From the IMG/VR virus record IMGVR_UViG_3300019742_000001: a stretch of DNA of 64,000 bases; one strand, 5' to 3'. Position 1 is the first letter of the stretch, and the number at the start of each line of letters is the position of its first letter. This stretch comes from a virus. Lineage: Duplodnaviria; Caudoviricetes. Both the position numbers and the translations under genes were made by a program. This document shows positions 27,788 through 61,093 of the stretch, in pieces. The notes under the pieces were generated by a model. It did no database searches. It worked only from the letters and a program-made list of their open reading frames with translations, and was not told the DNA's origin.

Positions 27788-27797
27788 AGGTGTTTGT

Positions 27798-31360: not shown

Positions 31361-31596
31361 AATTTAAAAAAGGTGATATCATTATATGTACAGAACCACA
31401 CAGTAACTTTTTGACAGTCGGTGACCTGTATACAATAATTAGGGTGGAAATAACTGATTATTGGGGTGATGGTGACGATGTTGAAAGACATGTCATAGTG
31501 TTAGACGATAATGGAAATGAATCTGGTTGGTATTTTGATCGATTTGAACTCTATGTCAAACCATATAATTTAGATGAGGATTTATTTGTGATATGA
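31357..31596 (+). CDS. MKFKKGD-family paralog with DxLF tail
   Basis: DDNGNESGWYFDRFELYVKP, ends LDEDLFVI. Confidence 0.65.
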   Translation: MKFKKGDIIICTEPHSNFLTVGDLYTIIRVEITDYWGDGDDVERHVIVLDDNGNESGWYFDRFELYVKPYNLDEDLFVI

Positions 31597-31841
31597 AATT
31601 TAAAGAGGGTGATATTGTTATCTGTCTCAATGAATTCAGTATCAATGGAATCAGTAACATTGTGACAAAAGGAAACTTGTATACAGTACTTCGGGTTGAA
31701 TTGACCGTATATCAAAACGGTGTTAATGAATACTCTATTTTTGTGATAGATGATCGTGGTAATGAAACTGGTTGGATGTTTGATCGATTTGAACTCTATG
31801 TAAAACCAAACAACTTTGACGATGATTTGTTTGTATTATGA
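31593..31841 (+). CDS. MKFKEGD-family paralog with DxLF tail
   Basis: DDRGNETGWMFDRFELYVKP, ends FDDDLFVL. Confidence 0.65.
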   Translation: MKFKEGDIVICLNEFSINGISNIVTKGNLYTVLRVELTVYQNGVNEYSIFVIDDRGNETGWMFDRFELYVKPNNFDDDLFVL

Positions 31842-36777: not shown

Positions 36778-36996
36778 TTGAAAGGATTACCATATATGTT
36801 ATCAAATGAAACTGTTCGTGCTCTTGCTACTGCTCTCCGTTACTATGTACTATATGAAAGATCTAATCCAGAAGTCGGTATGGGTCCATCATTACCATGT
36901 CAAACCTCTGATATTCTTATTACTTCACAAATTGATGACACTAACGAAAATCGAACTCAAGTCATGACGGCTTATAATGAAAGATGGTCACGATGA
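36778..36996 (+). CDS. Hypothetical protein
   Basis: First ORF after the divergent promoter region. Confidence 0.4.
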   Translation: MKGLPYMLSNETVRALATALRYYVLYERSNPEVGMGPSLPCQTSDILITSQIDDTNENRTQVMTAYNERWSR

Positions 36997-37250
36997 ACAA
37001 ATTTAAAGTAGGGGATATCGTAAAAGTTAAACAGAATCTTACTGAGGTTGAGGGCAAATTTGGTGTCATTGACCGTATGAGAGAAATGTCTGGAAATACA
37101 TTTACTATATCTGAAGTGGTTGAACATTTTAACCCTCCAAGTAAATGCTCATATTCTTTAGATGGAGTGTCAAATCTTGGTTGGTACGATGAGTGGTTAG
37201 AACTATATGTTGAACCTGTCAAACTACCAGAGGATCTTTTTATATTATGA
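36993..37250 (+). CDS. KOW/SH3-like small protein with DxLF tail
   Basis: MNKFKVGDIVKVK, ends EPVKLPEDLFIL. Confidence 0.65.
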   Translation: MNKFKVGDIVKVKQNLTEVEGKFGVIDRMREMSGNTFTISEVVEHFNPPSKCSYSLDGVSNLGWYDEWLELYVEPVKLPEDLFIL

Positions 37251-37501
37251 ACAACTTTAAAGTAGGGGATAAAGTTTGTGTCAAGACAGATTATACAAAT
37301 GAATATATGAATCCTAATAGTAGCCAATATAATAAAGAAAATAGTTTTCTGACTCATCACGGTCAACACCCATTCTATACCATATCTAGTATATCTGATT
37401 GTGGTAATTTTATTAGATTCAATGACTATGATAATGGATGGTCTAAAATCGTTTTTGAGTTATATAAAGAAACTTTTGATGAGGAGCTTTTTCATGTATA
37501 A
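37247..37501 (+). CDS. KOW/SH3-like small protein with DxLF tail
   Basis: MNNFKVGDKV, ends TFDEELFHV. Confidence 0.65.
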   Translation: MNNFKVGDKVCVKTDYTNEYMNPNSSQYNKENSFLTHHGQHPFYTISSISDCGNFIRFNDYDNGWSKIVFELYKETFDEELFHV

Positions 37502-37787
37502 AGTCGGTGATAAAATTAAAATTAAATCTTATAAAGAAATACATTCTCTATTGGAATTCGATAGTGACGGTGACGGTTTTACTAATACCATTCATTTTAA
37601 TGAAGAAAGAATGAAGAATGCCTGTGGTAAGACATTAACAATCATTAAAATAAGACCTTCTCCTGATGACCCTAATATTATATTATATGTTGCTCCAGTA
37701 AATGGTGATGAGTGGTGTTGGATTAAAGAATGGATCGAACCTTTTATCGAACCTGTTAAACTACCAGAGGATTTATTCATATTATGA
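37494..37787 (+). CDS. KOW/SH3-like small protein with DxLF tail
   Basis: MYKVGDKIKIK, ends EPVKLPEDLFIL (same tail as 36993). Confidence 0.65.
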   Translation: MYKVGDKIKIKSYKEIHSLLEFDSDGDGFTNTIHFNEERMKNACGKTLTIIKIRPSPDDPNIILYVAPVNGDEWCWIKEWIEPFIEPVKLPEDLFIL

Positions 37788-38008
37788 TATTCAAAAAAGG
37801 GGATGTAGTTGTGATTGACGAAAATACCAAATATGGTTTTTATAAAATGAAACTTAATCATCTTGTGGGTAAACCTCCGTATACCATATACAGTATATCA
37901 GAGAATGACCGTATCAAATTCTCTAAATTCGGTGACTCTTATCCTAATGACATGTTTGTATCATGCACTCAACCGATTCAACTTGATGATGACCTTTTTC
38001 AAATTTGA
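37784..38008 (+). CDS. KOW/SH3-like small protein with DxLF tail
   Basis: MIFKKGDVV, ends QLDDDLFQI. Confidence 0.65.
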   Translation: MIFKKGDVVVIDENTKYGFYKMKLNHLVGKPPYTIYSISENDRIKFSKFGDSYPNDMFVSCTQPIQLDDDLFQI

Positions 38009-38599: not shown

Positions 38600-41500
38600 T
38601 ACCACATATGGTCTTTACGTCCCCGGATTATTAACATATTTCTATTTTTTTCTTCTTTCCTGTGTGTCGGTAAGATAACATACCTTTCTACCCTCCGTTA
38701 CCCTTTATCTCCCTTTTCAACCCCCCATACCCTCTCTATTCCTCTATAACTCCTATTCCTCTATAAATCCTATACTCTTTTACCCTCTATTCCCCCTATA
38801 TATCCTATACCTTATGTGGTATTCAAGGGATTTTGACCTTCATATCAATATACCTTCCGTTACTCAGTGTATAAGTTACTCAATTAGTTATATTTCACTC
38901 TTTTTACATCAATTCTGACAGGTTTTGTTCAAAAAAATTCTGTACACTAAAAATTCAGTCGGGTCTTTTTTTATCCCAAAAAGTTTTTCAAGTCAACTTT
39001 GTCAGGTTTGATTCTTAAAAATTACATAAGCAATGCACTATAGTTAAGGTATCCATTTAATTAAAAACTTTTTACACGGTTGACTTTTCACCTCACAGAA
39101 TCCTAATGTATATACTCTAATGAACACACACTAACTAATCTTCTCTCTCTAATCTTCTAATGTTTCTTTATTAATGCAATTATAATACTAATAGGCCATA
39201 ATAACATATTACTAATGAATACAATACTAATCATTAGAATTCCACAATTATTCGGGTAAACTCTGGTCTGCATAACTGAACAAAATATTCCCCATAATAT
39301 ACCAATAATAATATATACTACCATATCTGTTAATCTCCTTTTATATTTTCTAATTATATTTATCTTGTAGTGAATATGACTATATGGTATAATGGACTTG
39401 ACGACACAAAACTATATTCTAATGATAATATTTTTAATTATTAATTCTAATCTTAGTGTACAAATGACTCTCTACCATATGTGATGTCAAGTAAAAACTT
39501 ATCAACATATATGAAATGAGATATGTCTATAGTTAATTACCACATAAGGGGTGATGTAAGTATCTGTATTGATTAGGCATTATAATGAGTTAATGTAGTC
39601 AAAGTTTACATAATATACATTATACGACTTAAAATTTTCTAATTGTGGATAAGTTTTTGCTTGACATTTGGAATAATACACATATGGTATAACAGTTTTA
39701 TGTCGTCAATTCCATTATACCATATGACCCCATTATACACAAGATATAATTTAATACCATATGTGGTTACTGTAATAACGGTTACCCACGAACACATTCA
39801 GTCATCCATTCCTTTATATAATCTTCATCTGTTTTGTAATCTGACACATCAAGGAATATTGGATAACAATCACTTGGTGCATTATCATTTATACTATCTA
39901 ATACTACCATATCAAGTATATTTCCTCTACACTCTAATGTGAATTGCCTACCGTCTATTGATTTCTTTACTTTCATTACTTTATCCTTATGATACCCTAC
40001 AAACATTCTTACATATTTCTTATATAACTCATTATCATATAAGGTAGTCATATTAGATGTTTCCTGATCTACAACACTTATTACACTATTTTCATTAATT
40101 GGGGTAGTCACATTAGATGTTCCTTGATCTACAACACTTATTACACCATTTCTTAGTTTTTCACGATAACATACACCACATCTTGATCCTTTTCTCCAAT
40201 TATTATACAAAGTTTCAAAGATATGACCATTTGGACATCTCAACTTTAACTTCGTTCGTGCATTCCTATACCCTTCTATCAGTTCATACCCTTCCACTCT
40301 TATTATGTCTGATATTTCTCTTGACTTCTCTTCATTAATAGGTTTAGTGGTGGGTTCTTTTCTCACATATGGTATTGAGTCTGATTGTTGTTTCACTACC
40401 ACATAACCGCTCTTCCCACCTGTAGTCATATTATATCCATTGGGGTAGAGTGTACCTTTTAGTTCAATATAATATGATTCTAATACTTCCGCTTCTTCCT
40501 CTGTTATACCACTGACTAATATTTTCCATTCAAAATCATCCCAATTTTCACTTAGTGCTTGGGATATGGGTGTGGTAGTAGAGTTAATACTACTCCTATG
40601 GGAATTTTTTCTCTGTTCAAAGTTATTACACATTCCCACATAACCCTTACCATTAATGGTATTTGTTGCCTTGTATACTTGATATTTCATATTTATCCTC
40701 CTGTAATAAAGTGTTATACATTAGTATTTATACATTTATTACATTTATTACATTTATTACACCTGATTATTATACTATATGTGATATGGTGTTGTAAATC
40801 AGTATTTATGTGATATGACTACCCTACCATATGTGATATACCCTTGTCAATCATTAGAATTGTCTATATTAGTGACATTTTCCTTGATTTTAGGTGTAAC
40901 TTGTGAGTTGGGTACTACATTCATCACATTTGTCATCGTAAATTAGAAGTTTTTTATTAATTAACCCTCTTTTTTCTCCTCAATTTTCATTTGTCAACTT
41001 TATCCGGAATTTTTCATTAAAAGGGTGCAAGTTGTCTAAGGTCATTATGCACATTAAGAAGATAGACACAAAAACCTATTGGTATCAAAGGGATTACAAA
41101 TTTATCATTAAAATATCAATAAAAAAGGTATTGGTATCAAAGGAATAAAAGGTATCAGCAAAAATTTTCAAAAGGGTTAAAATAGAGAAATGAAGTGAAT
41201 CCAATGAGTTATGTGGTATTACTACCTATGTAAAAGGTGTATATTTGTGTCAATTATTCCCTAAAATATCAATGATAAAAAGATCAATCATATCAATCAG
41301 TTAGAAGGGATCAAATAGTATAGGAGAAGTGAGAGGAATAGGAGATGAATAGGGTAATGATACTAAGTAGTTATAGAGGTATACTCTTTTTGTGTGTTCT
41401 ACCCCTATGATATCCACCTTACCTGTGTATAATCTAGTGTAATATGTGTGTTCCTACCCTATAATATATGTAAACTAATTAAATAACGTGTGATAATGAT

Positions 41501-41610
41501 GATTTATTAATGAGAAATATGTTAGAGGTTGATATAGATTAAATGAAGAGAAAAGTTGTTTTATGTTAATTTTTGAGAACAGTTGATATGTATGTTGTTA
41601 TATTGTTTAA
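38480..41610. other. Large AT-rich, mostly non-coding region and candidate replication origin
   Basis: No credible ORF except the GIY-YIG. Repeated ACCATATGTG, pyrimidine-rich left and purine-rich right flanks, and an IHF-like site at 41291-41303. Confidence 0.45.
39782..40690 (-). mobile_element. GIY-YIG (Seg-like) homing endonuclease with Zn-ribbon DNA-binding module
   Basis: YQVYKATNTINGKGYVG...R...H...LESYYI...PNGYNMTTGG and CPNGH...RCGVC, with TATAAATA at 40725. Confidence 0.85.
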
Positions 41611-41617
41611 TCATTGT

Positions 41618-41920
41618 TTATACCTCAAAGAGATCATTGGGTAGATTGTTAATAGAAGGATCAATGAGAATGGTAGCATATTCATCGTAGTTGAGTGAGT
41701 GTTGTTGATGATCTTTGAAACGATTGTGATCAATGGATGTATGTTCAGTAGGATGTACAACTTTCATATTAATTAAGTCATATTCATATTTAGCGTTAGA
41801 TAATTGAATGATAGCATTGAAAGGGATTCTGTTGTTATCTTCGGAGTTATGAATAGTGACGAGAGTTCCAATAGGGAGATATTGTAATAGTTTTTTATTA
41901 TATTGTTGTTTCATGGTCAT
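41618..41920 (-). CDS. Array family A protein (LPIGT.VTIHNS), DxLF tail
   Basis: Ends INNLPNDLFEV. Confidence 0.7.
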   Translation of the reverse strand: MTMKQQYNKKLLQYLPIGTLVTIHNSEDNNRIPFNAIIQLSNAKYEYDLINMKVVHPTEHTSIDHNRFKDHQQHSLNYDEYATILIDPSINNLPNDLFEV

Positions 41921-41922
41921 GT

Positions 41923-42201
41923 TTATACCTCAAAGAGATCATTGGGTAGAGAAGAGTTAATGGTAGCATATTCGTTCTCATTAAGAGAGTGTTGGTTATG
42001 TTTTTTAAAACGACTGTGATTGATAGTTGTGGGTTCAGTAGGATGTACAACTTTCATATTAGAGTGGTCGTAACTGAATTCAATGATAGCTAATTGAATG
42101 ATAGCTTGGAATGGTTGATCATTGTTATCTTCGGAGTTATGAATAGTGACGTGTGTGCCAATAGGTAGATCTTGTAATTGTTGTTTATTATATCGTTTCA
42201 T
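41923..42201 (-). CDS. Array family A protein
   Basis: Ends SSLPNDLFEV. Confidence 0.7.
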   Translation of the reverse strand: MKRYNKQQLQDLPIGTHVTIHNSEDNNDQPFQAIIQLAIIEFSYDHSNMKVVHPTEPTTINHSRFKKHNQHSLNENEYATINSSLPNDLFEV

Positions 42202-42203
42202 GA

Positions 42204-42488
42204 TTATACCTCAAAGAGATCATTGGGTAGATTGTTAATAGAAGGATCAATGAGAATAGTAGCGTATTCATTGGGTTCTAATAAGTGTTGATTATATTGA
42301 GTAAAGGTATGATGAGAAAGCATGATACCGACATCAGGGTTAATAGCCCGAGAATTGTTACCGTATACCAAAGAGTCTTGAGATATTTGAATGGTTCCAT
42401 TGAAAGGAGTAGGGTAAAAGTCAGAGTTATGAACAGTGACGTGAGTTCCAATAGGGAGATCATCAAGGTTATGGTATCGTTTATTCAT
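42204..42488 (-). CDS. Array family A protein
   Basis: C-terminal 21 aa identical to 41618. Confidence 0.7.
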   Translation of the reverse strand: MNKRYHNLDDLPIGTHVTVHNSDFYPTPFNGTIQISQDSLVYGNNSRAINPDVGIMLSHHTFTQYNQHLLEPNEYATILIDPSINNLPNDLFEV

Positions 42489-42490
42489 AG

Positions 42491-42757
42491 TTATACCTCA
42501 AAGAGATTGTCATCAAATAGGTTCGTCATTTTTGTTATGCCAGTTTTTGTTATGCCAGTAATTCTACATTCAGGTGTCCAATGAGTTCCATAGAATGTGA
42601 ATCTGCTGTGTCTTAGGTTATGGTTATTGTCAATAGGTTTAGTGCAATACCCAATAGCAGTGCTAGAGTTTTCAAATCCAACAATTCTTACATTGAATGA
42701 ATGATTGTCATGTTGTATTGTAACTAAATCGTTCACCTTATATTTGTGGTTATTCAT
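42491..42757 (-). CDS. Array family B protein
   Basis: N-terminal ~48 aa almost identical to 43024, ends LFDDNLFEV. Confidence 0.7.
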   Translation of the reverse strand: MNNHKYKVNDLVTIQHDNHSFNVRIVGFENSSTAIGYCTKPIDNNHNLRHSRFTFYGTHWTPECRITGITKTGITKMTNLFDDNLFEV

Positions 42758-42759
42758 AG

Positions 42760-43020
42760 TTATACCTCAAATAGATCATCATCAAATAGTGAGTCATCTA
42801 ATATAGAGAAGGTTTCTTTGTTAACGACATAGTGTTGTTTATTTTTTTTGTACATTGAGTGGTCCAAAAAGATATCAGGGTTAATAACTTTAATATTAGA
42901 GTTAGGAACAAATTGGACCGAACCATTGAAAGGTTTATAATCGTTATACTCAGAGTTATGAATAGTAACTCTAGTACCAATATGGATATTTTGTAGATGA
43001 TTAGGTTGATGTTTAATCAT
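42760..43020 (-). CDS. Array family A protein
   Basis: Ends LFDDDLFEV. Confidence 0.7.
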   Translation of the reverse strand: MIKHQPNHLQNIHIGTRVTIHNSEYNDYKPFNGSVQFVPNSNIKVINPDIFLDHSMYKKNKQHYVVNKETFSILDDSLFDDDLFEV

Positions 43021-43023
43021 TGG

Positions 43024-43290
43024 TTATACCTCAAATAGATCATTAGGTAAAAGGTTTTTAGGTAAAAGGTTTTTAGGTTTAACTAATGAGATAACACATT
43101 TTTCCGTAATCCAATGAGTTCCATTTAATTTATATCTGGGATGGTCAAGTTTATGGTTATCATCAATAGGTTTAGTGCAATACCCAATAGCAGTGCTAGA
43201 GTTTTCAAATCCAACAATTCTTACATTGAATGAATGATTGTCATGTTGTATTGTAACAATATCATTCACCTTATATTTGTGAGTATTCAT
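43024..43290 (-). CDS. Array family B protein
   Basis: Ends LLPNDLFEV. Confidence 0.7.
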   Translation of the reverse strand: MNTHKYKVNDIVTIQHDNHSFNVRIVGFENSSTAIGYCTKPIDDNHKLDHPRYKLNGTHWITEKCVISLVKPKNLLPKNLLPNDLFEV

Positions 43291-43292
43291 AG

Positions 43293-43559
43293 TTATACCT
43301 CAAAGAGATCATTAGGTAAAGGGTTAATGATCGTAAAAGATTCATTATCACTAAGGAAATGTTGTTTATTATTTTGGTAACGAGGATGATCTAATTGTAC
43401 ATCAGGTCTAACCAAGTTAATCTTATGTAGAGGATCTTTAGATAATTCAACAGTTCCAGAGAAAGGAATGCCATCATTATATTCAGTATTGGAAATATTG
43501 ATACGAGTACCAATAGGAAGATTTTGAATTAGATCATTAGGTTTATGTTTATCAGACAT
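43293..43559 (-). CDS. Array family A protein
   Basis: Ends PLPNDLFEV. Confidence 0.7.
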   Translation of the reverse strand: MSDKHKPNDLIQNLPIGTRINISNTEYNDGIPFSGTVELSKDPLHKINLVRPDVQLDHPRYQNNKQHFLSDNESFTIINPLPNDLFEV

Positions 43560-43562
43560 TGA

Positions 43563-43835
43563 TTATACCTCAAAGAGATCATTAGGTAAATGGTTAATGA
43601 TCGTAGCATATTCATCTTCACATATTTGGTGTTGTTTGTTTGATCTGTATCTGCCGTGGTCAATGAATACATCAGGGTTAATGACTTTGGTTTTCGATTC
43701 AGATATTTTTGTAGAGAATTGAACAGTGCCCGTGAAGGGTTGATTGTTATTATATGTAGTGTCATGGATAGTAACACGTGTACCAATAGGAAGATTTTCA
43801 ATAGATTGTTGATTATAATGTTTATTCATGTTCAT
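43563..43835 (-). CDS. Array family A protein
   Basis: Ends HLPNDLFEV. Confidence 0.7.
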   Translation of the reverse strand: MNMNKHYNQQSIENLPIGTRVTIHDTTYNNNQPFTGTVQFSTKISESKTKVINPDVFIDHGRYRSNKQHQICEDEYATIINHLPNDLFEV

Positions 43836-43837
43836 AG

Positions 43838-44116
43838 TTATACCTCAAAGAGATCATCAGGTAAGTTGTTACATTCGTAATTGATTATAGAGAAATATTC
43901 ACCATGGCACATAAAGTGTTGTTCGTGTATTCTATAGCGATCGTGTGATATTATAACGTGTTCATCAGGTTTAATAACTTTTTGGTTACGTTCATTACGG
44001 TCTAAGGATAGTTCTACCGTGGCATTAAAAGGTTTTCTATTATTGTATACCGAGTTATGAATAGTAACACGAGTACCAACATTTATAGATTGTAATTCTT
44101 CAGGGAGAAGTTTCAT
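43838..44116 (-). CDS. Array family A protein
   Basis: Ends NLPDDLFEV. Confidence 0.7.
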   Translation of the reverse strand: MKLLPEELQSINVGTRVTIHNSVYNNRKPFNATVELSLDRNERNQKVIKPDEHVIISHDRYRIHEQHFMCHGEYFSIINYECNNLPDDLFEV

Positions 44117-44529
44117 TATTTAACCAAACGGTAAGGTTTATTCCAAGTACCGATATTAATATCAATGTATCGTGAACGGTGGAAGTAGTCAGTCATAGAG
44201 TCATCGTTATTGAAGTAACCTTCCCCCTTCATAGCTTCGTGAAGTTCGTTAAGAACTTTGGCAAATTTGGGAGAGAAAGTGGAGTCAATATGATAGACAT
44301 TAACATTGATATTGTCAGTAGTAGTGTAAGGAGTTTCCCCGCGACGAACAGCGTTATAAGCCGATACTTCATTATAGTCAGTGAGGAAGTCCATGTAACC
44401 AGCGGCAATTTTGAGAACAAGAGTAGATCCGTTATGAACAGAGAGAGTACCCTTTAGTCCATTTTTGGAAAGAATGGCTTTGACTATAGGAGCGACAGCT
44501 TTTTTATCATCTTGAGATACATAAGCCAT
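44116..44529 (-). CDS. Conserved T4-like phage protein (no DxLF tail)
   Basis: MAYVSQDDKK..AP.VKAIL.K.GLKGTLSV...DDSMTDYFH...YIDINIG.W.KPY, own promoter at 44573-44600. Confidence 0.7.
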   Translation of the reverse strand: MAYVSQDDKKAVAPIVKAILSKNGLKGTLSVHNGSTLVLKIAAGYMDFLTDYNEVSAYNAVRRGETPYTTTDNINVNVYHIDSTFSPKFAKVLNELHEAMKGEGYFNNDDSMTDYFHRSRYIDINIGTWNKPYRLVK

Positions 44530-44603
44530 AATTGTGATCCTTTCAAAAAGAGTTAGTCTTGGTTACAGATCTATAGTAACACACTGGCATAATGAGTCAA
44601 GAG

Positions 44604-44855
44604 TTAAATAGTGAATAAGTCATTGTCAAGAATATGTATAGGTTTAGTGATATTGTCTAATGCAAGGTGATCTTCACAGTAAGAGTTGGATGATCCGGTA
44701 TCCCATTGTACCTTATAATTAAGTCTACCAGAATTATCGTCTTCAATAATAGTGCCAACAACCTTACCATATTTACCTCCATACTGAGGGTTGTTGATGT
44801 GGTCAGAATACTCATCTGTAATCAGTCTTACTCTATCATATATTTTAAATTTCAT
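44604..44855 (-). CDS. Array family C protein, paralog of 45861
   Basis: NNP.YGGK.G.VVG.I, ends ILDNDLFTI. Confidence 0.7.
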   Translation of the reverse strand: MKFKIYDRVRLITDEYSDHINNPQYGGKYGKVVGTIIEDDNSGRLNYKVQWDTGSSNSYCEDHLALDNITKPIHILDNDLFTI

Positions 44856-44858
44856 AAG

Positions 44859-45251
44859 TTATACCTCAAAGAGATTATCGTCAAAGGATGATTTCAAGTA
44901 AGTATCAACTTTATTACATACATCAACAGGAGCGTTACGTCGAGTATTGGTTATGTAATCAATGAAGTCATATTTATTTTCGGATGAATTTAAGTTTCTA
45001 ACGAATACCCCTCTCATGATATAGGCAACAGGTTTGATAAATTCCATTTCAAAGTGATGGAATGGGTCACCAAATTCATAAATATCGTATCCATGACCAA
45101 AACTATCATGTCCAAGTCGAATGAATCTGTTATCAGGTGACAGAGAAGTGATCATATAAGGAGGTTCACCATATCGGTCAAGGTGTTCTTTGGCATTTTG
45201 TGTTCTACCTGTCAATACTTGAACATAGTCACCTACTTTAAATGGATTCAT
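44859..45251 (-). CDS. KOW-like protein with DxLF tail
   Basis: MNPFKVGDYV, ends SFDDNLFEV. Confidence 0.65.
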   Translation of the reverse strand: MNPFKVGDYVQVLTGRTQNAKEHLDRYGEPPYMITSLSPDNRFIRLGHDSFGHGYDIYEFGDPFHHFEMEFIKPVAYIMRGVFVRNLNSSENKYDFIDYITNTRRNAPVDVCNKVDTYLKSSFDDNLFEV

Positions 45252-45253
45252 AG

Positions 45254-45580
45254 TTATACCTCAAACAGATCATTGTCAAGAAATTGTGGTTTAGTGATTA
45301 CAATGAAGCCATAGTCAACTTTCTGTTTATATTTCTGACAGTACATCATTAGTATTTCCATATCATTATCTAGTTTAATGGCGTATACAGTATCACGACT
45401 GAATTCATGTTGACTACTGTTAATAATAACACCAGTTAGTCCAACCAAATTTTCAGAGTCACTATACCCACTAACATAGTTTTTCAATTGAAGTTTGTTA
45501 GCCATGTCTTGGTATGTTGAGTAGCATTTACCAGTATCAACAATTTCAACATGGTCACCAATTTGTGGATCTTTATTCAT
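45254..45580 (-). CDS. Array family D protein
   Basis: PQIGD.V.I...G..Y.TY..MA.KL.L, ends FLDNDLFEV. Confidence 0.7.
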   Translation of the reverse strand: MNKDPQIGDHVEIVDTGKCYSTYQDMANKLQLKNYVSGYSDSENLVGLTGVIINSSQHEFSRDTVYAIKLDNDMEILMMYCQKYKQKVDYGFIVITKPQFLDNDLFEV

Positions 45581-45582
45581 AG

Positions 45583-45858
45583 TTACACCTCAAATAATTT
45601 ATCATCGGTGAAGTCATTGATATTATATCGTTGACCTTTCCAAGTGTTATAGTTTTCGTTACGGCATTCAATAGGTACGTAATTTTCGATATACTGAATA
45701 TGGTCATTCCAAAATGGTTTGATCATAGGATGTGCGTGTAACAGTGCTTCATCATATCGACCACGTAATAATAATTCAGTACAAGAACCAGCAGGGATAC
45801 CGTGTTCTATCCACATATCAATAGCACTAACAATATTATCATCAACACATAGATTCAT
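45583..45858 (-). CDS. Helical phage protein with DxLF-like tail
   Basis: EHGIPAGS..., ends FTDDKLFEV. Confidence 0.65.
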   Translation of the reverse strand: MNLCVDDNIVSAIDMWIEHGIPAGSCTELLLRGRYDEALLHAHPMIKPFWNDHIQYIENYVPIECRNENYNTWKGQRYNINDFTDDKLFEV

Positions 45859-45860
45859 AG

Positions 45861-46112
45861 TTATACCTCAAATAAGTCATCATCAAAAAGAGGAGGTTGG
45901 ATATCCAATACCAGATCTTTATCACAATAATTGTTGTACCTGTCATCCGTCCACTTAACATTATATACGAATTGGCTATCTCCATCATTAATTGACGTAA
46001 TCTCACCAACAACATTTCCGTGTTTGCCGCCATATAATGGATTATTTGAAAGGTCACCATACTTACCACTAACATATCTTACTTTGTCACCTAATTTAAA
46101 CATAATTATCAT
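45861..46112 (-). CDS. Array family C protein
   Basis: Ends LFDDDLFEV. Confidence 0.7.
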   Translation of the reverse strand: MIIMFKLGDKVRYVSGKYGDLSNNPLYGGKHGNVVGEITSINDGDSQFVYNVKWTDDRYNNYCDKDLVLDIQPPLFDDDLFEV

Positions 46113-46456
46113 ACCTCAAAGAGATTATCATCAAAAAGATTGGGAGTTGAAGTGACAATGAAACCACGATTTTGTTCCCCATAAGTATACTCGTATCCGA
46201 TAATAATATCAATAGGATTATTATCATCAAGTATGAGTCTGACACCATATACCATTCTATTTTCTTCTTGTAGGTGTTTGCCTTTTGCGACGATCACTCC
46301 TACCATACCTTCTTTGATTATATCACTACCAACAACTTTCATAAAATTAAAATATTCCAATTTAAGATTGATAGCCATTTCAAAGTAGCTGGGATATATC
46401 TCACCAGAATTGGTAATTTTTACATTATCGCCAATTTGTGGTTCTCTGTCAGTCAT
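46109..46456 (-). CDS. Array family D protein
   Basis: RGFIVTSTPNLFDDNLFEV. Confidence 0.7.
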   Translation of the reverse strand: MTDREPQIGDNVKITNSGEIYPSYFEMAINLKLEYFNFMKVVGSDIIKEGMVGVIVAKGKHLQEENRMVYGVRLILDDNNPIDIIIGYEYTYGEQNRGFIVTSTPNLFDDNLFEV

Positions 46457-46458
46457 AA

Positions 46459-46758
46459 TTATACCTCAAATAGTGAGTCATCTAATATATTGGGAGTTGA
46501 AGTGACAATGAAACCACGATCTGATTCATCTGCACTGTAACCCATTAAAATATCAGTACCATTTTGTAATCGTATACCGTAAATTAACTTTCCTGTATCA
46601 GATCCAGAAATAACACCAATTTCTCCGTTCTTGGTGGTTAAATTAGATATGTAATTGGTAAGATTCAGTTTATCAGCCATTAATTGGTAAGTGGTATATT
46701 GTCTGCCATTGTTGGTGATTTTGACACTATCACCAATTTGTGGGAAATTTGTATTCAT
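46459..46758 (-). CDS. Array family D protein
   Basis: RGFIVTSTPNILDDSLFEV. Confidence 0.7.
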   Translation of the reverse strand: MNTNFPQIGDSVKITNNGRQYTTYQLMADKLNLTNYISNLTTKNGEIGVISGSDTGKLIYGIRLQNGTDILMGYSADESDRGFIVTSTPNILDDSLFEV

Positions 46759-46760
46759 AA

Positions 46761-47015
46761 TTATACCTTACCCTTTGCCATAGATTTGAAACCTTCACTA
46801 ATTAATTTCATCCGTGATGGTGTGTAATTACTGCAACCGAAGTCGTGATTAATACTTGATGGGTGTGTTTCAACTCTATCCATCAATGTAATTTTTTCAC
46901 CTTCTACTGGGCAATGAGTGATTTTGGTTTGTTGGTGATTACATTTAACAAGTTTACTGTCAAACATATTCCGACTTAACCATTTACAATCTTTACAAAA
47001 TATTTTTGGTTCCAT
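46761..47015 (-). CDS. Cys-containing small protein, first gene of the array operon
   Basis: CKDCKW...C...N....C. It ends KGKV but keeps the AGGTATAA junction. Confidence 0.65.
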   Translation of the reverse strand: MEPKIFCKDCKWLSRNMFDSKLVKCNHQQTKITHCPVEGEKITLMDRVETHPSSINHDFGCSNYTPSRMKLISEGFKSMAKGKV

Positions 47016-47070: not shown

Positions 47071-47325
47071 TCAAGAGTTAAATGTATATGTATCAGGTAG
47101 TTGATCAGTGATGGGTTGGTCATCTTTGTAATGCCATAGTAATTGGAATCCTTCTGAGGTTAGAAAAATCCCCTCCAAGACGATAATACCAGCATGTGTT
47201 AATTTATGGCAATTTGGACATAGGAGGCAGATATTCGATTTAGAATTATCGCCCCCTTTTGACCTACTCTGTATGTGGTGTTTGTCCAATAGTGCTGGAG
47301 TGTTGCATATTTGACAAGGTTTCAT
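47071..47325 (-). CDS. Small HNH endonuclease
   Basis: CQIC...KHHIQSRSKGG.N..SNICLLCPNCHKLTH. Confidence 0.88.
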   Translation of the reverse strand: MKPCQICNTPALLDKHHIQSRSKGGDNSKSNICLLCPNCHKLTHAGIIVLEGIFLTSEGFQLLWHYKDDQPITDQLPDTYTFNS

Positions 47326-47360
47326 TAAGATATTATAGTATGTGTGTCACTTAATGTCAA

Positions 47361-50631: not shown

Positions 50632-51281
50632 TGAGATTACAACAATACATAACAGAAGGTGTTAGTGTAAAATATGATGACATATATGATATAATACCAC
50701 TAATAAAACGTGATTGTAAGAAGTGGATTAATGAAAGTAACGGACAGTTTGCGTTTAGAGGTATGAAAAACAAACCATTATTTATTAAACATGACGTAAG
50801 GAAAAACAGAAAACCAAAAGATACATCAAAGTCCCAACATGAATTGATGGATAACGTGATGAATGACAAATTTGGATGGCATCCTCGTTCTGAGGGTTTG
50901 TTTTGTTCGGGTGATATGATGTCAACAACTGATTATGGTGTTCCATACATGATATTTCCTATAGGTGATTATAGATATGTATGGAACCCAAAAGTTAAAG
51001 ATAGTTTTCTTGATACTTCTAACTTTTCATCATGGTGGGTCCAATTACTGAGTATTGCTATCGAAGATAAATTCTTAAATAAATTTATTATGGAAAAATC
51101 AACTAAAAAAATGTTGAAGGGGTACATTGATACTGGATTAAGTAACGCATTAAGACGAGATAATGAGGTAATGGTCGAATGTAAAGAGTATTATGCTATA
51201 CGAGCAGAATCCATACATAGTGTATATAATGATGACGCTCCATATGCATCATTCACAGACTTTTTGGTGGATATATCATGA
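50631..51281 (+). CDS. ADP-ribosyltransferase-like protein (subfamily 1) with CTS leader
   Basis: MRLQQYITE; AFRG, GLFCSG...YG, NEVMVEC. Confidence 0.55.
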   Translation: MRLQQYITEGVSVKYDDIYDIIPLIKRDCKKWINESNGQFAFRGMKNKPLFIKHDVRKNRKPKDTSKSQHELMDNVMNDKFGWHPRSEGLFCSGDMMSTTDYGVPYMIFPIGDYRYVWNPKVKDSFLDTSNFSSWWVQLLSIAIEDKFLNKFIMEKSTKKMLKGYIDTGLSNALRRDNEVMVECKEYYAIRAESIHSVYNDDAPYASFTDFLVDIS

Positions 51282-51874
51282 GATTACAACAATACATAAC
51301 AGAGAAGGCATCAAAGAACACCATTGTATGTGATGTTCAACCAATGTATGAACAATATCAGTCATTTGAGACATATGAGTTCACTGAATTCCTTAATACT
51401 CAAACTAAACAAGTTATGTATTATTTCAATGGACCTGATACTGTTGGTACTGATACAGAGAGTGATATCAAATACTGGTTGATTGAGAATGGATTGAATG
51501 AGGAAAAACTCAATGATATCACATTCTTTGATAAGGGGTATGCATATTTCCGATCATTTATGGATGAAGGTATATCCGAACATACAATAATCAAGATGAT
51601 TAGATATATGTTCAAGACAAGACAATGGGATTCACGTGATATAGAAAATGAAGAGTGGGAGAAGGCATTGGGTAGTGACTATGATAGTGATGTTGAACAT
51701 ATGTTAGACAGTGGTGATATGATTTATCCACCTGATATTGATATTCGTCAACTAAGGCAACACGGTGGAGGGTATATCGTAGGTGGTGGTAAGAGAGAAT
51801 GTTTGGCAGAACTTCAATTATTGATGTCTGCGTTTAATATAAAAGCAAGAGAAATTAAAAGATATGTATATTAG
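51278..51874 (+). CDS. CTS-leader protein, possible isochorismatase/cysteine-hydrolase fold
   Basis: MRLQQYITE; TIVCDVQP, DKGY, YIVGGGKRECL. Confidence 0.4.
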   Translation: MRLQQYITEKASKNTIVCDVQPMYEQYQSFETYEFTEFLNTQTKQVMYYFNGPDTVGTDTESDIKYWLIENGLNEEKLNDITFFDKGYAYFRSFMDEGISEHTIIKMIRYMFKTRQWDSRDIENEEWEKALGSDYDSDVEHMLDSGDMIYPPDIDIRQLRQHGGGYIVGGGKRECLAELQLLMSAFNIKAREIKRYVY

Positions 51875-51883
51875 GAGATTATA

Positions 51884-52600
51884 ATGGTAAATTTAAAAGG
51901 TGCTTATGTTACAAAAGATGTGAAATTGGATAGATTACCCGATTTCGATGAAAGAAGTAAAAACTTTCCTATCAGAGAGTTGTCTGGTTCAAAGAAACAA
52001 CGGTCATACACTTGGCGTTGTAATGAACAATTAGATCAAGGACCAGATGGTGCATGTGTTGGGTTTGGTGTTGCACATGAGTTAATCGCAAGACCAGCAG
52101 AAGTTAAAGGTATCACTGACACTTATGCAAAACAGAATATCTATTGGGAAGCACAGAAGATTGATCCTTGGGATGGTGGTAGTTATCCCGGTGCATCACC
52201 ATTTTATGAAGGAACAAGTGTTCTTGCTGGTGTTAAAGTAGTTCATAAAATGGGTTGGATTGATTCATATCGTTGGGCATTTGGATTGGAAGACTTGATT
52301 CTTGGTGTTGGTCATAATGGTCCAGCCGTTATTGGTGTTGGATGGCACGGCAACATGTTTCAACCTGATTCAGATGGTTACATTCACGCATCAGGTGGTA
52401 TCTATGGTGGTCACTGTGTATTAGTAAATGCAGTTAATGTTAAGAAACAACGATTTACTATTCATAACTCATGGGGTAAATCATGGGGTATGAATGGTGA
52501 GTGTTATATTTCATTTGAAGATATGGGTAAACTATTGGCAGATCGGGGAGAAGCAGTATTCTTCTTAAAACGTCATAACAAAAAACAACCACAAATATAA
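51884..52600 (+). CDS. Papain-like (C1) cysteine peptidase
   Basis: LDQG..GACVGF (Q/C), GGHCVL (H), HNSWG.SWGMNG (N). Confidence 0.88.
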   Translation: MVNLKGAYVTKDVKLDRLPDFDERSKNFPIRELSGSKKQRSYTWRCNEQLDQGPDGACVGFGVAHELIARPAEVKGITDTYAKQNIYWEAQKIDPWDGGSYPGASPFYEGTSVLAGVKVVHKMGWIDSYRWAFGLEDLILGVGHNGPAVIGVGWHGNMFQPDSDGYIHASGGIYGGHCVLVNAVNVKKQRFTIHNSWGKSWGMNGECYISFEDMGKLLADRGEAVFFLKRHNKKQPQI

Positions 52601-52623
52601 TTAAAGTATGGAGGAATAATAGT

Positions 52624-53520
52624 ATGAGATTGGATCATTTTTTGGTGGAAGGTAGATCAAAATCACTAAAATTACAACAATTCAGAGATGAACTTGGTAG
52701 TGGGAAATATTCCGATGTATTAAAGTATTATAAAAGTTTGGATGATCCCACATCAGGGTTTATATACAGAGGTAATCGGTCATCCGATACATTGGCTGTT
52801 GTAGACCCTAAGACATCAACTAGGACTAGTCAAAACACAGATAATTATTACACTCTTTTTATTGATAATGATCCATCGTGGTCTAAATTCCCTAAAAGGA
52901 GTAAGTCACTAATCTGTACAACTGATTACTCAAAATCAATATTATATGGTAATGGTTATGTAATGTTCCCTGTTAACGGATCGGATATAGGAATTTGTCC
53001 AAAGGGAGATATATGGGGTAGTTTTAAGGGGTTAGAGTCTAGTGGGGGTAATGATGGGTTTTTGGCATTACTTTTTGAGTCATTTAACGATATGTTTACT
53101 GTTATTAACAAAAGCGGGGAGATAAAAGAATGTTTTAATGAAGATTTTTCTATAGAGTCTCTTGTGAATAGTATGCTTAGCAGATCTAAGCCAACTAAAC
53201 ATAAAACTTATGATGATGACATTGGAACATTTAAGAAACAACTGAAATATCTCGACCAACACATCAAAAAGAACGGACCAGATATATATTTGGGGTATCT
53301 ACCTCTGATTGATAAGTTGTTTAATACATTTTACAAAGGTGATATGTATAAGTGTATATCTGATATACTTGATCCCAAAAGAAGTGGGTTTAAGTTACAA
53401 AAGGTTGGCAAAAAACTACCAACCAATGGACATGAAGTATGGACTGATGGTAAATGTTTAATGATGGATGTTCATCTTTTTGGTCAATTACATGATTCAG
53501 GTGAATTGTATGATTTGTAA
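52624..53520 (+). CDS. ADP-ribosyltransferase-like protein (subfamily 2) with CTS leader
   Basis: MRLDHFLVE; IYRG, RTSQNTDNYYTL, SLICTT...YG, HEVW. Confidence 0.55.
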   Translation: MRLDHFLVEGRSKSLKLQQFRDELGSGKYSDVLKYYKSLDDPTSGFIYRGNRSSDTLAVVDPKTSTRTSQNTDNYYTLFIDNDPSWSKFPKRSKSLICTTDYSKSILYGNGYVMFPVNGSDIGICPKGDIWGSFKGLESSGGNDGFLALLFESFNDMFTVINKSGEIKECFNEDFSIESLVNSMLSRSKPTKHKTYDDDIGTFKKQLKYLDQHIKKNGPDIYLGYLPLIDKLFNTFYKGDMYKCISDILDPKRSGFKLQKVGKKLPTNGHEVWTDGKCLMMDVHLFGQLHDSGELYDL

Positions 53521-53547
53521 AGAAATCACTAAAGAGGGTGGAAGTAT

Positions 53548-54387
53548 ATGAAATTACAGAGATATTTAATAGAAGGTCGTACCCAGAGTCTACCAAAAGA
53601 TGAATTCGAAAAACTGTTGAGAACTGACTATAGAGATTCTGTTATGTCAGTAATCAATGGAAAAGGGATGTTGTTTCGTGGTAACAAAGATACTCCACAA
53701 TATGGATATGTTGATACTTCAAAGGGGAAACTTAGACGATCTGCAAATACAAGTAATGAATATACACTGTGTATTGATAATTCGTCAAGGTGGAAGAATT
53801 ACCCTCGACGTGGTAGATCATTAATATGTTCCACCAGTTTATTATATGCTATTAATTATGGTCATCTTAATATTGTATTACCTATCAATGGATCATCTAT
53901 AGGTATATGTTCTGATGACGATTTTTGGTATAGTTTCCCATATATAGAGAAAGTGTTGCATATTAGAGATATGGATTCATTCAATAGTGAATTCAGGGAT
54001 CTATTACGTTGGGGTACAGGTAATAGAACCAATGATAAAAATTGGGCACAACTTAGATCGGCAATGAAAGAATTTGATAAGAAATTTGAGAATTATAATT
54101 ATGACTGGGACAATGTGTTTTCTGAAATATATTCGGGGATTAATTATACAAAATCTGCTTCTGCATGGGATGACGCATGGAAGGGTAGTTTACAAAAAAC
54201 TATCAATGATATAATAGATCCTGTAAATAATGAATTCAAGTTAGTCAATATTGGTGACCAGTTTGATGATGATTGTGAAGCATGGTTTAGTGGTAAATCA
54301 CTTGTTATCAATACTAACTATTTTGGTGACAAAGGTGAATATGAAAAAACATTGAATTATTTGATGTCAGTTATGGAGGGACATTAG
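53548..54387 (+). CDS. ADP-ribosyltransferase-like protein (subfamily 2) with CTS leader
   Basis: MKLQRYLIE; LFRG, RRSANTSNEYTL, SLICSTS..A.NYG, CEAW. Confidence 0.55.
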   Translation: MKLQRYLIEGRTQSLPKDEFEKLLRTDYRDSVMSVINGKGMLFRGNKDTPQYGYVDTSKGKLRRSANTSNEYTLCIDNSSRWKNYPRRGRSLICSTSLLYAINYGHLNIVLPINGSSIGICSDDDFWYSFPYIEKVLHIRDMDSFNSEFRDLLRWGTGNRTNDKNWAQLRSAMKEFDKKFENYNYDWDNVFSEIYSGINYTKSASAWDDAWKGSLQKTINDIIDPVNNEFKLVNIGDQFDDDCEAWFSGKSLVINTNYFGDKGEYEKTLNYLMSVMEGH

Positions 54388-54391
54388 GTTT

Positions 54392-54973
54392 ATGAAATTA
54401 CAGAGATATATAAATGAAATGGGGTTTGATGAGGAACAGGATTTATGGCAAAAAGAGATCTTGCCCAAACTTGAAAAGGATTGTAAACCATTCCTCAAAG
54501 AAAAGACATTACTTTATAGAGGTTTTGGTAGAAGATTTGATTTCGAATTTATCATACCTCGTAAGGATAGAAGACCATTGGATAGCCCACAGTGGTTCCA
54601 TGATGGTTTCGATAATGCATCTAAAAAAGTGTTTGGTTGGAAGTCGAGATCAGAGGGAGTCTTTGCATCATCTACATATTCAACAGCTAGTGCTTATGCT
54701 GGTAGTGGTACAGTGGCAATGGTATTCCCTAAAGGTAAATTCAAGTATATCTGGTCATCAAAGATCAATGATTTATTTGATGAACTCAATGATGAAGATT
54801 TCTCAATATTTGATGATGAAACTGCGTGGGTTCAATTCGTAAAACAGAACTACCAAGATAATAATTTAAGATCGGTTCGCAACGAAAACACAGAGATTAT
54901 GTTGTATTGTCCTAATGGATATTACGCGGTGGATGTGGCGTTTGATGAGGCTGTAAAAAAGGTGTTATTATGA
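54392..54973 (+). CDS. ADP-ribosyltransferase-like protein (subfamily 1) with CTS leader
   Basis: MKLQRYINE; LLYRG, GVFASS...ASAYA, TEIMLYC. Confidence 0.55.
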   Translation: MKLQRYINEMGFDEEQDLWQKEILPKLEKDCKPFLKEKTLLYRGFGRRFDFEFIIPRKDRRPLDSPQWFHDGFDNASKKVFGWKSRSEGVFASSTYSTASAYAGSGTVAMVFPKGKFKYIWSSKINDLFDELNDEDFSIFDDETAWVQFVKQNYQDNNLRSVRNENTEIMLYCPNGYYAVDVAFDEAVKKVLL

Positions 54974-55710
54974 GATTAGAATCGTATATAGATAGTAGTG
55001 ATATAACATATGAACAGTATGTATCAGGTATTGACTCATATTTCTCAGTGGATGAGGGTTTCAAAGAGGTCAAGGATAAGTCGGTTGCATTTGTTAAGAG
55101 ACAATTGAAGATGGCATCAGATGAATTTGATAAGATATCACATGAACTAGGGTTGTCATTGATTCAGATATCACATGCATTAACGGAAAAGAATGTGTTC
55201 AAGTTACTGAAATCAATAGGGTTTTCTTTCGTGAAACTTTTATCATCATTAAATGGATTATCAGGTATAGTTCGTCAAGGTCTGTTTGATGCATTTGAAG
55301 AATTATCCAAAACACAACTATGGATGAAGTTCAAGTCTGGTGTTGCTGCATGGGATGATATACTTGACCGATATCCAGTGATGAAAAAAGTAACTGGTGT
55401 GTTAGTCGCAGGTCTTTTGTTTTTCATGTGGACACAAATGACATTCATTGGAAATCTTGACTATGATTTTGATTTCACCTCAATTGCGTTGGCATTGAAA
55501 GGGAAATACTCACTGGAACAAATATTTGGTGGTCCTGAAGGTGCAATGTTATTGACACTGTTCGCTAGTGGATCATTAATTAGTGTTGCTTGGTTGGGTG
55601 AAACTGTATACAACCTGATCTTGGCATTGGTTTACACAGGTTCCAAGAAATTGTCAACTGTTGACCATAAGGTGGTTAACATAATCAAATCAAAAATGGT
55701 ATTCGAATGA
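54970..55710 (+). CDS. CTS-like-leader protein with hydrophobic helical C-terminal half
   Basis: MRLESYIDS; TM-like VTGVLVAGLLFFMW, AMLLTLFASGSLISVAW, VYNLILALVY. Confidence 0.6.
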   Translation: MRLESYIDSSDITYEQYVSGIDSYFSVDEGFKEVKDKSVAFVKRQLKMASDEFDKISHELGLSLIQISHALTEKNVFKLLKSIGFSFVKLLSSLNGLSGIVRQGLFDAFEELSKTQLWMKFKSGVAAWDDILDRYPVMKKVTGVLVAGLLFFMWTQMTFIGNLDYDFDFTSIALALKGKYSLEQIFGGPEGAMLLTLFASGSLISVAWLGETVYNLILALVYTGSKKLSTVDHKVVNIIKSKMVFE

Positions 55711-56543
55711 GATTAGAACAGTATATTATCAACGAGAGTTCAAGATCAAAACCTTTGGACAAAGAAACGTTCGAAGAATTGTTGAGAACTGATTATAGTG
55801 ATGCTGCTAAGGCATTAGTCAAAAATGCCAGTAGTAGATTGTATCGTGGTAACTATGATCTTGCAAGATATGCCTTAACCGACCCTACCAAGGGAAGGTT
55901 ACGGAGATCATCTAACACATCAAATGAGTATACTCTGTTTATGGATAACAACAAGATATGGAATGAGTATCCTAATCGTGGTCGTTCCATTATATGTTCA
56001 ACCGATATGTTATCATCAGAACAGTATGGTGATAATGGGTTGGTTATCCCAATGAATGGCACACTACTTGGTCAATGTAATGAGTTTGATTTGTGGTCAT
56101 CATTCAAAGTATTGGAGAAATCACTTGATGTCGAGGATATGGATGATTTTAATCACACGTTACGTTTTCTAATTGGTGTAGGAAATGATACTAATTGGCG
56201 TACGTTACGTAAATCATTTACAACATTTGACAAGAAGCTAAAAGAGGGTGGTTGGGAATCGATATACAATGATATCATTACCAAGACTAAATATCAAAAG
56301 GAATATGCTCGTGAACTGGTTAGTAGGTGGGAGAAAATATGGAAGGGTTCTATGATGAAGACAATGGAATATCTATTAGATCCAAAGACTAACAAGTTTA
56401 AATTAAAGAAATCAGGTGACAAATTTGAACCAAATCGTGAGGTATGGGTTGGCGGTAAGGCGTTATATGTATCACTTGATTATCTTGACGCTACATCGGG
56501 TGATAAACACACAATCGATTATATAAAGAGGGTTATATCATGA
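55707..56543 (+). CDS. ADP-ribosyltransferase-like protein (subfamily 2) with CTS leader
   Basis: MRLEQYIINE; LYRG, RRSSNTSNEYTL, SIICST...YG, REVW. Confidence 0.55.
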   Translation: MRLEQYIINESSRSKPLDKETFEELLRTDYSDAAKALVKNASSRLYRGNYDLARYALTDPTKGRLRRSSNTSNEYTLFMDNNKIWNEYPNRGRSIICSTDMLSSEQYGDNGLVIPMNGTLLGQCNEFDLWSSFKVLEKSLDVEDMDDFNHTLRFLIGVGNDTNWRTLRKSFTTFDKKLKEGGWESIYNDIITKTKYQKEYARELVSRWEKIWKGSMMKTMEYLLDPKTNKFKLKKSGDKFEPNREVWVGGKALYVSLDYLDATSGDKHTIDYIKRVIS

Positions 56544-56986
56544 AATTATGTCAATACTTAATAGAATCCAATAGATTGAAGGTATACTTCGCACATCCAC
56601 GGGCAACGTATGGTAAACCAGAGGAAACAAAATGTATTAAAATGATAACTGACAAATTCCCTGAACATATCATTGTCACACCTAATAACAGTAATATCAT
56701 AGATCGTGCCAATAAGATGGGGTTTGATATATTCTTTGGGATTATTAATACAACACAGATAATGTGTGTTATGCCATTCAAAGATGGGATCATAGGTAAT
56801 GGCGCGTATCGTGAGTGTGAACATGCTAGTAAGAAGGGGATACCGATATTTGTTGTAAATCCTTGGAATAATACTATTACTGTAACACCATTTCATAAGT
56901 TGAAGGGTATCAGTCCAGAAGAAACGTTTGGTCGTATTGACAAAAAAGATCAACATAAATGGAAGGTACATGAGACAAGTGTATAA
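56540..56986 (+). CDS. Nucleoside 2-deoxyribosyltransferase/TIR-like Rossmann protein with CTS leader
   Basis: MKLCQYLIE; KVYFAHP...IG.GAY.E.E.A.KKGIPIF. Confidence 0.55.
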   Translation: MKLCQYLIESNRLKVYFAHPRATYGKPEETKCIKMITDKFPEHIIVTPNNSNIIDRANKMGFDIFFGIINTTQIMCVMPFKDGIIGNGAYRECEHASKKGIPIFVVNPWNNTITVTPFHKLKGISPEETFGRIDKKDQHKWKVHETSV

Positions 56987-57029
56987 ATAGTTAAAGATCA
57001 AATAAAATTTAATTTATGTGGAGAAATAT

Positions 57030-58977: not shown

Positions 58978-58979
58978 TT

Positions 58980-60494: not shown

Positions 60495-60505
60495 AGGAGG
60501 TTATT

Positions 60506-60772: not shown

Positions 60773-60774
60773 AT

Positions 60775-61090: not shown

Positions 61091-61093
61091 AGT

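Follow-up and report, generated by a model that had tools for sequence, protein, structure and literature searches.

In T4-type phages, small genes are shuffled as modules at the repeats of promoter-early stem-loop (PeSL) cassettes (Arbiol et al. 2010, PMC2839356; Comeau et al. 2014, PMC4122927), and in Staphylococcus aureus the tandem lpl paralogs recombine at a conserved block (Tsuru and Kobayashi 2008, PMC2568036). The clamp epitopes of the T4 proteins gp43, gp33 and gp55 are short hydrophobic and acidic C-termini on flexible linkers, and they are interchangeable among proteins (PMC2988020). Here we describe a locus that shares features with each of these, an array of 18 small genes in a 64,000-nucleotide stretch (the window) of the virus record IMGVR_UViG_3300019742_000001 from IMG/VR (Duplodnaviria; Caudoviricetes). 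Most of its products end in the same short peptide, and the codons of this peptide appear to supply the Shine-Dalgarno (SD) sequence of the following gene. We read the array as an early accessory block with a shared tail and dual-coded junctions, in which recombination proceeds cassette by cassette, and put the probability of this reading at roughly 60%.

The array occupies positions 41618-47015 on the minus strand (Table 1; genes are referred to by their lower coordinate) and consists of 18 tightly packed open reading frames (ORFs) of 252-414 bp with nearly no intergenic space. A single 74-nt gap (44530-44603) divides what otherwise runs head to tail. The sequence LFEV-stop closes 15 of the 18 genes, usually spelled GAG GTA TAA and followed after 2-3 nt by the ATG of the next gene; the exceptions are 44116 and 46761, which have no tail, and 44604, which ends DLFTI. 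By blastp, seven genes form family A (41618, 41923, 42204, 42760, 43293, 43563 and 43838; 38-66% amino acid identity), two form family B (42491 and 43024), which is a distant form of A, two form family C (44604 and 45861) and three form family D (45254, 46109 and 46459). Another four (44116, 44859, 45583 and 46761) are single-copy. Of the 18 products, 16 are small domains, and these belong to six or more sequence families without detectable mutual similarity. The array and its junction repeat had been described in an original prediction made from the letters of the sequence alone, and this description is confirmed, including the number of genes, their head-to-tail order and the sizes of the four families.

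The junctions between the genes are highly repetitive. With at most two mismatches allowed, the 18-mer GATCTMTTTGAGGTATAA occurs 13 times, always on the minus strand and inside the array, against an expectation of 0.02, and two looser copies (45583 and 46459) raise the number of LFEV-stop ends to 15, the number of repeats first proposed. As was also proposed, the same ~18 nt encode the peptide tail, carry the stop codon, hold a well-placed SD sequence and form a direct repeat. At 13 junctions the stop is followed by 2-3 nt and an ATG, with GAGG lying 7 nt (10 genes) or 8 nt (three genes) 5' of that ATG. The sequence GAGGU is complementary to the 3' end of 16S rRNA. An SD core 5-9 nt before the start and within the preceding ORF, with stop and start a few nucleotides apart, is the arrangement of coupled operons, and it is the arrangement found here.

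Codon usage in the tails fits this second role. The two free positions of the tail are fixed in the array as Glu-Val, with Glu always spelled GAG. This spelling is used in 17 of 17 tails that end EV, compared with five GAG and seven GAA in tails that end E[IL] (Fisher p = 0.0005, a generous value because the tail sequences are related to one another); in the window as a whole, GAA makes up 74% of Glu codons. The ending of a tail and the layout of its junction go together. EV tails are followed by a stop, 2-3 nt and an ATG in 13 of 16 cases, and x[LI] tails by an NTGA overlap of start and stop (TTA TGA or ATA TGA) in 19 of 29, while the reverse pairing (EV with an NTGA overlap, or x[LI] with stop plus 2-3 nt plus ATG) is not seen in a single case. 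There are also natural controls. Gene 44604, the sole tailed array gene that precedes a gap, ends TI; the tail-less 46761 still closes AAGGTATAA-TT-ATG (AAG GTA TAA TT ATG); and a plus-strand gene elsewhere in the window (27693-28157) ends EV and has the same layout with GTG TGA TT GTG. The junctions are preserved in a 95%-identical contig from a seawater sample (X5, described below). That the tail codons supply the SD sequence of the next gene is well supported by these patterns, and translation is probably coupled across the junctions. We hold the dual coding of the junction with considerable confidence.

The tail itself, a C-terminal motif of the form [LF][PD][DEN][DN]-L-F-x-hydrophobic, reaches well beyond the array. 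A scan of all window ORFs found it on ~30 small ORFs on both strands. Some 14 of the tailed small genes lie outside the array, at 23-49 kb and on either strand, and end acidic-acidic-L-F-x-[VIL] with different codons and a range of last residues (II, VL, IL, QI, TL, EI). The original description, which dealt with the array junctions, has to be corrected on this point, as the tail is not confined to the array. A set of 53 tails, taken from relatives as well as from the window, makes use of all six Leu codons and of both Phe codons, and the motif is retained in 19 tails that have no coupled downstream gene. An exhaustive HMMER search of 1.84 billion representative proteins returned only four outside relatives of families A and B (P0128, P0129, P0132 and P0133). 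All of them retain the body and the tail, with ends AI, EI, IVE and TL, and their contigs, which come from other environments, are rich in small tailed genes. In distant phages the tail occurs with another type of junction, an ATGA overlap.

When families A, C and D are compared profile to profile, only the tail can be aligned, and the linker that precedes it varies in length among cassettes. A model of the family A protein 43563 is a small five-strand beta-barrel (pLDDT 80) whose last seven residues (84-90) are disordered (pLDDT <50); a model of family D reached pLDDT 49 and was set aside. The presence of the motif on genes without a coupled follower, and in phages with a different junction, means that the repeat is due to the peptide: the junction repeat exists because of the peptide and not for recombination. 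The tail is, on this sequence evidence, an old peptide-level motif that is older than the array, and we consider it probable that it acts as a docking tag on unrelated small domains.

A second set of small tailed genes, with starts MKFKxGD and ATGA overlaps, is found on the plus strand of the window (30098-31841, 36984-38008 and 27693-28411); in this set, GAG GAT tail codons place GAGGA 11-13 nt before the next ATG. A 1.6-kb JGI contig (L024:90-1616) mirrors the local order of the window, with a 137-aa phrog_10415-like gene followed by small tailed genes, one of them related to family A, that have ATATGA overlaps and ends of the form PEDLF-x-I. The phrog_10415 gene is of no use as an anchor and is an unlikely partner of the tail, as its relatives (L003-L023) carry no tailed genes.

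The array also holds traces of past exchange. Among the 153 pairs of junctions, 35 share at least 18 exact nt and nine at least 23, with a maximum of 45. Two pairs of paralogs are mosaics, as had been suggested. Between genes 42491 and 43024, identity drops from 95% in the first 140 aligned nt to 55% in the remainder (maximum chi-square p = 0.002), and genes 41618 and 42204 are 58% identical and then 97% identical over the last 65 nt (p = 0.002 by the same test), a tract that extends well past the eight constrained tail residues. Each of these tracts has one end that runs through a junction. A third trace, also among the pairs first singled out, connects different families. In the family A gene 42760 the tail is double (42760-42830, minus strand), ILDDSLF followed by DDDLFEV, and its first half is the tail of the family D gene 46459, with 23 exact nt that include unusual codons and an unusual Ser. 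It looks as if unrelated cassettes had once exchanged sequence out of register.

The array proteins were found on microbial-mat metagenome contigs of 239,651 and 239,309 bp, and a seawater run from 2023 (X5) contains a relative of this mat phage at 85-95% identity. On one X5 contig the stop of 43838 leads directly into 43293, and the net 278 nt missing from it correspond exactly to cassette 43563; in a protein search 43563 was found only in the mat phage, fitting its absence in X5. Two other contigs join 46459-type sequence to 45583, a net loss of 598 nt that corresponds exactly to 45861 plus 46109, and one of these joints falls within 14 shared bases. On one low-depth contig, the tail of 43293 is joined to a 41618/41923-like gene and 1379 nt (about five cassettes) are skipped, and further X5 joints involve D-family genes with swapped ends. 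Bins not covered by X5 (42284-43139 and 46778-46991) were scored as absent only where a contig bridges them. For ten cassette proteins, the 90% clusters contained no X5 orthologues. We read the X5 differences as losses or replacements and not as fresh duplications, since divergence is far greater among the paralogs than between the orthologues. The cassettes shared by the mat phage and X5 evolve fast. Their ratios of nonsynonymous to synonymous substitution rates (dN/dS) are 0.33, 1.29 and 0.53, and 44859 differs from its X5 ortholog by ten nonsynonymous and two synonymous changes. The X5 copy of 44604 (L139:753-1038, corresponding to window 44604-44855) has ATA instead of a start codon.

Recombination at the junctions is thinly supported by these sequences, and junction-mediated turnover of cassettes seems to us the likelier account of them. 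The original prediction had proposed such recombination, and the two conversion tracts, the hybrid double tail and the junction-bounded differences in X5 bear it out; the proposal has to be qualified in that the repeat is owed to the peptide. The array had also been expected to vary among strains in order and content. Both are fixed in four mat samples; X5 lacks whole cassettes from junction to junction.

Several observations weigh against cassette turnover and a shared docking tail. The array is 100% identical, without alternative joints, in three microbial-mat runs (X1, X3 and X4) and in an ENA assembly from another sample, although this comparison rests on contigs, which hide rare variants, and minor forms are possible. 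Mat contigs break at the junction repeats. The paralogs are old, both mosaic tracts end mid-gene on the side away from the junction, and only a handful of recombination events can be scored. The X5 contigs are short, have depths of 2-8 and lie in a range of likeness prone to repeat artefacts, and indels of whole genes could also stem from selection filtering random deletions. No partner of the tail was found, and the DNA polymerase of the phage has an end (QAFKAFFG) that differs from it.

Several of these points would be expected if the array were an ordinary old cluster of tandem paralogs, with a C-terminus kept by descent and function, junctions whose similarity is a by-product and that play no special role in recombination, and random deletions filtered by selection. 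The 38-66% identity of the paralogs, an array fixed in four mat samples, and the mid-gene end of each conversion tract together with the small number of scoreable events all fit this explanation. It is less easily reconciled with a junction common to the unrelated families A, C and D, with the 23-nt exact hybrid tail that connects a family A and a family D gene, or with X5 joints of which one (598 nt) lies inside 14 shared junction bases and another (278 nt) removes exactly one cassette. We consider it unlikely, if still a serious competitor. A different explanation of the tail is that it binds a sliding clamp, in the manner of the C-terminal epitopes of T4 gp43, gp33 and gp55, and that through it the cassettes would ride on, or compete for, the clamp of the phage or the host. 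The peptide is short and C-terminal, combines acidic with hydrophobic residues and follows a linker that the one model shows as disordered, all of which fits the description of the T4 epitopes. However, the family B DNA polymerase of the phage (920 aa, L143:6355-9117) ends like T4 gp43 and not in the DLF tail, and there was no tailed gene in the 27 kb walked beyond the window to the polymerase. A clamp epitope would thus seem improbable.

It could also be argued that the peptide is a by-product of a nucleotide signal for translation initiation of the next gene and has no function as a peptide. The tail codons do overlap the next SD sequence or start in both junction types (GAGGTATAA-nn-ATG here and GAGGA...TTATGA in relatives). 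But the preservation of Leu and Phe through all six and both of their codons, respectively, largely refutes this idea, the 19 tails without a coupled follower retain the motif, and one motif is found with two different junction layouts; we give a mere by-product very little credence. Least probable of all, to the point of being negligible, is a true site-specific, integron-like cassette system with a dedicated enzyme acting at the junction. Candidate enzymes are at hand in the HNH endonuclease at the head of the operon and the GIY-YIG endonuclease below the array, and the cassettes lack promoters of their own behind one strong promoter-like site. Yet the Pfam assignments of the surrounding genes include no tyrosine or serine recombinase, the junctions show neither stem-loops nor an attC-like inverted repeat, for which spacers of 2-3 nt leave the only room, and among the matches listed no IMG/VR contig has more than one copy of the junction.

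If the array is in fact an early accessory block of recombining tailed cassettes, it would be transcribed early, from a plastic part of the genome of an uncultured T4-like phage of 239 kb. Each product would consist of a small body domain, a linker of variable length and the common C-terminal peptide. Selection would act on the peptide itself, which most likely docks every product on one shared partner. Spelling Glu-Val as GAG GTA before TAA would create the Shine-Dalgarno sequence GAGGU at a distance of 7-8 nt from the next ATG; the end of one gene would be the ribosome-binding site of the next, as can be seen in the sequence, and translation would probably be coupled. Common ends of 18-45 nt would make the junctions dispersed direct repeats, at which general homologous or short-homology recombination could patch paralogs, fuse tails, and remove or replace cassettes between related phages, events of which some are visible in the traces above. 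The array may evolve in this way, cassette by cassette, without a site-specific recombinase.

Modular shuffling at repeated expression signals is already known in T4-type phages. The new element here would be a coding repeat that is at once docking peptide, stop, ribosome-binding site and recombination homology, across unrelated families. If true, this would explain how dozens of unrelated small early proteins can be kept on one partner despite quick turnover. The tail peptide offers a simple handle for finding that partner, and hence what a large block of uncharacterized phage genes does, and the design could be borrowed for self-expressing, recombinable gene arrays. A more specific possibility, which we regard as doubtful, is that the cassettes are a library of targeting adaptors, in which each domain grips a different host or defence protein and the tail hands it over to one machine. 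Candidates for the shared machine in the same genome include the ClpP protease, a set of genes for ubiquitin-like conjugation and a C-terminal ligase resembling RimK. Were the cassettes such adaptors, the junction would let the phage add, drop or recombine them with expression and docking never broken.

Because promoter-like sites are found only at 47360-47332 and in the gap at 44530-44603, with none between the other cassettes, the region looks like two early operons split at the gap. Endonuclease genes flank the array, HNH (47071-47325, minus strand) and GIY-YIG (39782-40690, minus strand), and the domains of both were confirmed; HNH heads the operon and GIY-YIG lies ~0.9 kb below the array. 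By making double-strand breaks, such enzymes could increase local recombination. At the far end of the array, the stub at 41561-41614 is likely a truncated cassette remnant and, as such, one more trace of recombination. The ENA contig k141_131502 terminates exactly at 41618, beside this stub. The neighbourhood also has phage genes, among them a CCA-adding enzyme, an RNA ligase, a RimK-like ligase and the family B DNA polymerase. Outside the window there are genes for a ClpP-family protease (L140:3614-4159 / L142:5125-9601 region) and RtcB, and the same region (L140:3614-4159 / L142:5125-9601) has an NAD salvage set of NAPRTase, NUDIX, NAD synthase and an isochorismatase-family protein. Window positions 51094-64000 differ from two ENA assemblies (L140 and L141) by one 18-nt gap and zero mismatches, with a few gene calls of different length.

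Table 1. Features of the array and its flanks in the window, listed in the direction of transcription
Feature	Coordinates	Strand	Remarks
Sigma-70 consensus promoter-like site (TTGACA-17-TATAAT)	47332-47360	-	12/12 consensus matches; putative, from consensus only
Small HNH endonuclease gene	47071-47325	-	first after promoter-like site; Pfam PF01844, E=1e-9
Cys-rich 84-aa gene	46761-47015	-	no tail; end AAG GTA TAA + TT + ATG
Family D cassette	46459-46758	-	tail ILDDSLFEV
Family D cassette	46109-46456	-	tail LFDDNLFEV, TGA stop; missing from one X5 seawater contig
Family C cassette	45861-46112	-	X5 contigs join across
Single-copy cassette	45583-45858	-	tail DDKLFEV, kept in X5
Family D cassette	45254-45580	-	dN/dS 0.33 vs X5 ortholog
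Single-copy 130-aa cassette	44859-45251	-	X5 ortholog 92% identical
Family C cassette	44604-44855	-	end DLFTI; only tailed array gene without coupled follower
74-nt gap	44530-44603	-	promoter-like site (TTGACT-16-TACTAT); no stable stem-loop
137-aa gene, widespread phage family phrog_10415	44116-44529	-	no tail; TAA overlaps next ATG by 1 nt
Family A cassette	43838-44116	-	
Family A cassette	43563-43835	-	modelled member; missing from X5 junction to junction
Family A cassette	43293-43559	-	
Family B cassette	43024-43290	-	5' part near-identical to 42491
Family A cassette	42760-43020	-	double tail (ILDDSLF + DDDLFEV)
Family B cassette	42491-42757	-	
Family A cassette	42204-42488	-	3' end near-identical to 41618
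Family A cassette	41923-42201	-	closest paralog of 41618 (66% aa identity)
Family A cassette	41618-41920	-	last intact array gene
Junction + 17-codon stub	41561-41614	-	start resembles start of cassette 42760

Database searches gave few leads to what the cassettes do, and the anti-defence or host-takeover role put forward in the original prediction is a conjecture. No informative family was returned for them by Pfam, PHROGs, PADLOC, a PDB sequence search, Foldseek against PDB, or the ESM Atlas; the sole matches were weak SH3/Tudor-like hints, and for the family C gene 45861 there is a weak MIB_HERC2/SH3-like hint in its paralog. The array had no match among 50,697 phage records (megablast, blastn), the profiles of families A and D detected no relatives in IMG/VR, and the JGI metagenome contigs contained neither protein 44859 nor the 23-base junction pattern. 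In IMG/VR, the junction 17-mer was present in a single copy per contig among the 80 of 109 matching stretches listed, about the level of chance. Literature searches with the tail strings yielded nothing relevant.

How the locus compares with known systems depends on which of its features is considered. The original prediction spoke of an accordion locus, in which recombination at the junctions adds, drops or shuffles units. In gene accordions of the poxvirus type, tandem copy number changes via recombination between repeats, and the copies are recent, near-identical and variable in the population. The array copies share only 38-66% identity and the mat population shows no variation; an accordion that is active at present is not upheld. 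The prediction also called the array functionally integron-like, with no integrase or attC. The absence of both is borne out: no IntI-type recombinase was found, as Pfam assignments for the genes from ~6 kb upstream through the array showed HNH only, and no attC-like sites were found, the junction and gap sequences having no significant fold and the spacers being only 2-3 nt long. The likeness to integrons holds as an analogy, in that integron cassettes too are promoterless, self-contained units behind one promoter that are gained and lost as units; exchange in the array would instead be general recombination at a coding repeat, for which the evidence is sparse.

The tail resembles the T4 clamp epitopes in being a C-terminal peptide, acidic as well as hydrophobic, that is carried by a flexible linker. 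It differs from them in its motif, in that the phage polymerase does not carry it, and in that dozens of small early proteins of unknown function do. The analogy of mechanism therefore stands, while membership among the clamp epitopes is not supported. The lpl cluster is closer. There, as here, each unit contains a conserved nucleotide block as a site of recombination, the 5' and 3' parts of genes have different and discordant histories, and strains are rearranged. In lpl, however, the block is central in the ORF and the evolving unit spans two genes, whereas the block of the array is the gene end plus the junction, the unit is a whole gene, and the block is common to unrelated families.

PeSL cassettes differ from the array in that the PeSL is an intergenic promoter with a terminator, whereas the array repeat lies in coding sequence with a stop, an SD sequence and a spacer of 2-3 nt. 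A promoter and stem-loop between the shuffled genes were not found here, and promoter-like regions fold no better than their shuffles. Yet both systems lie in plastic regions of T4-like genomes and have short expression signals that recur from one small non-essential gene to the next, and in both the repeats would serve as homology for the insertion, deletion and replacement of whole genes between close relatives. In the array, indels between close relatives are bounded by the repeated motif, as seen on the short, low-depth X5 contigs. Of the mechanisms described so far, PeSL shuffling is the nearest to what we see here, and the lpl cluster comes next.

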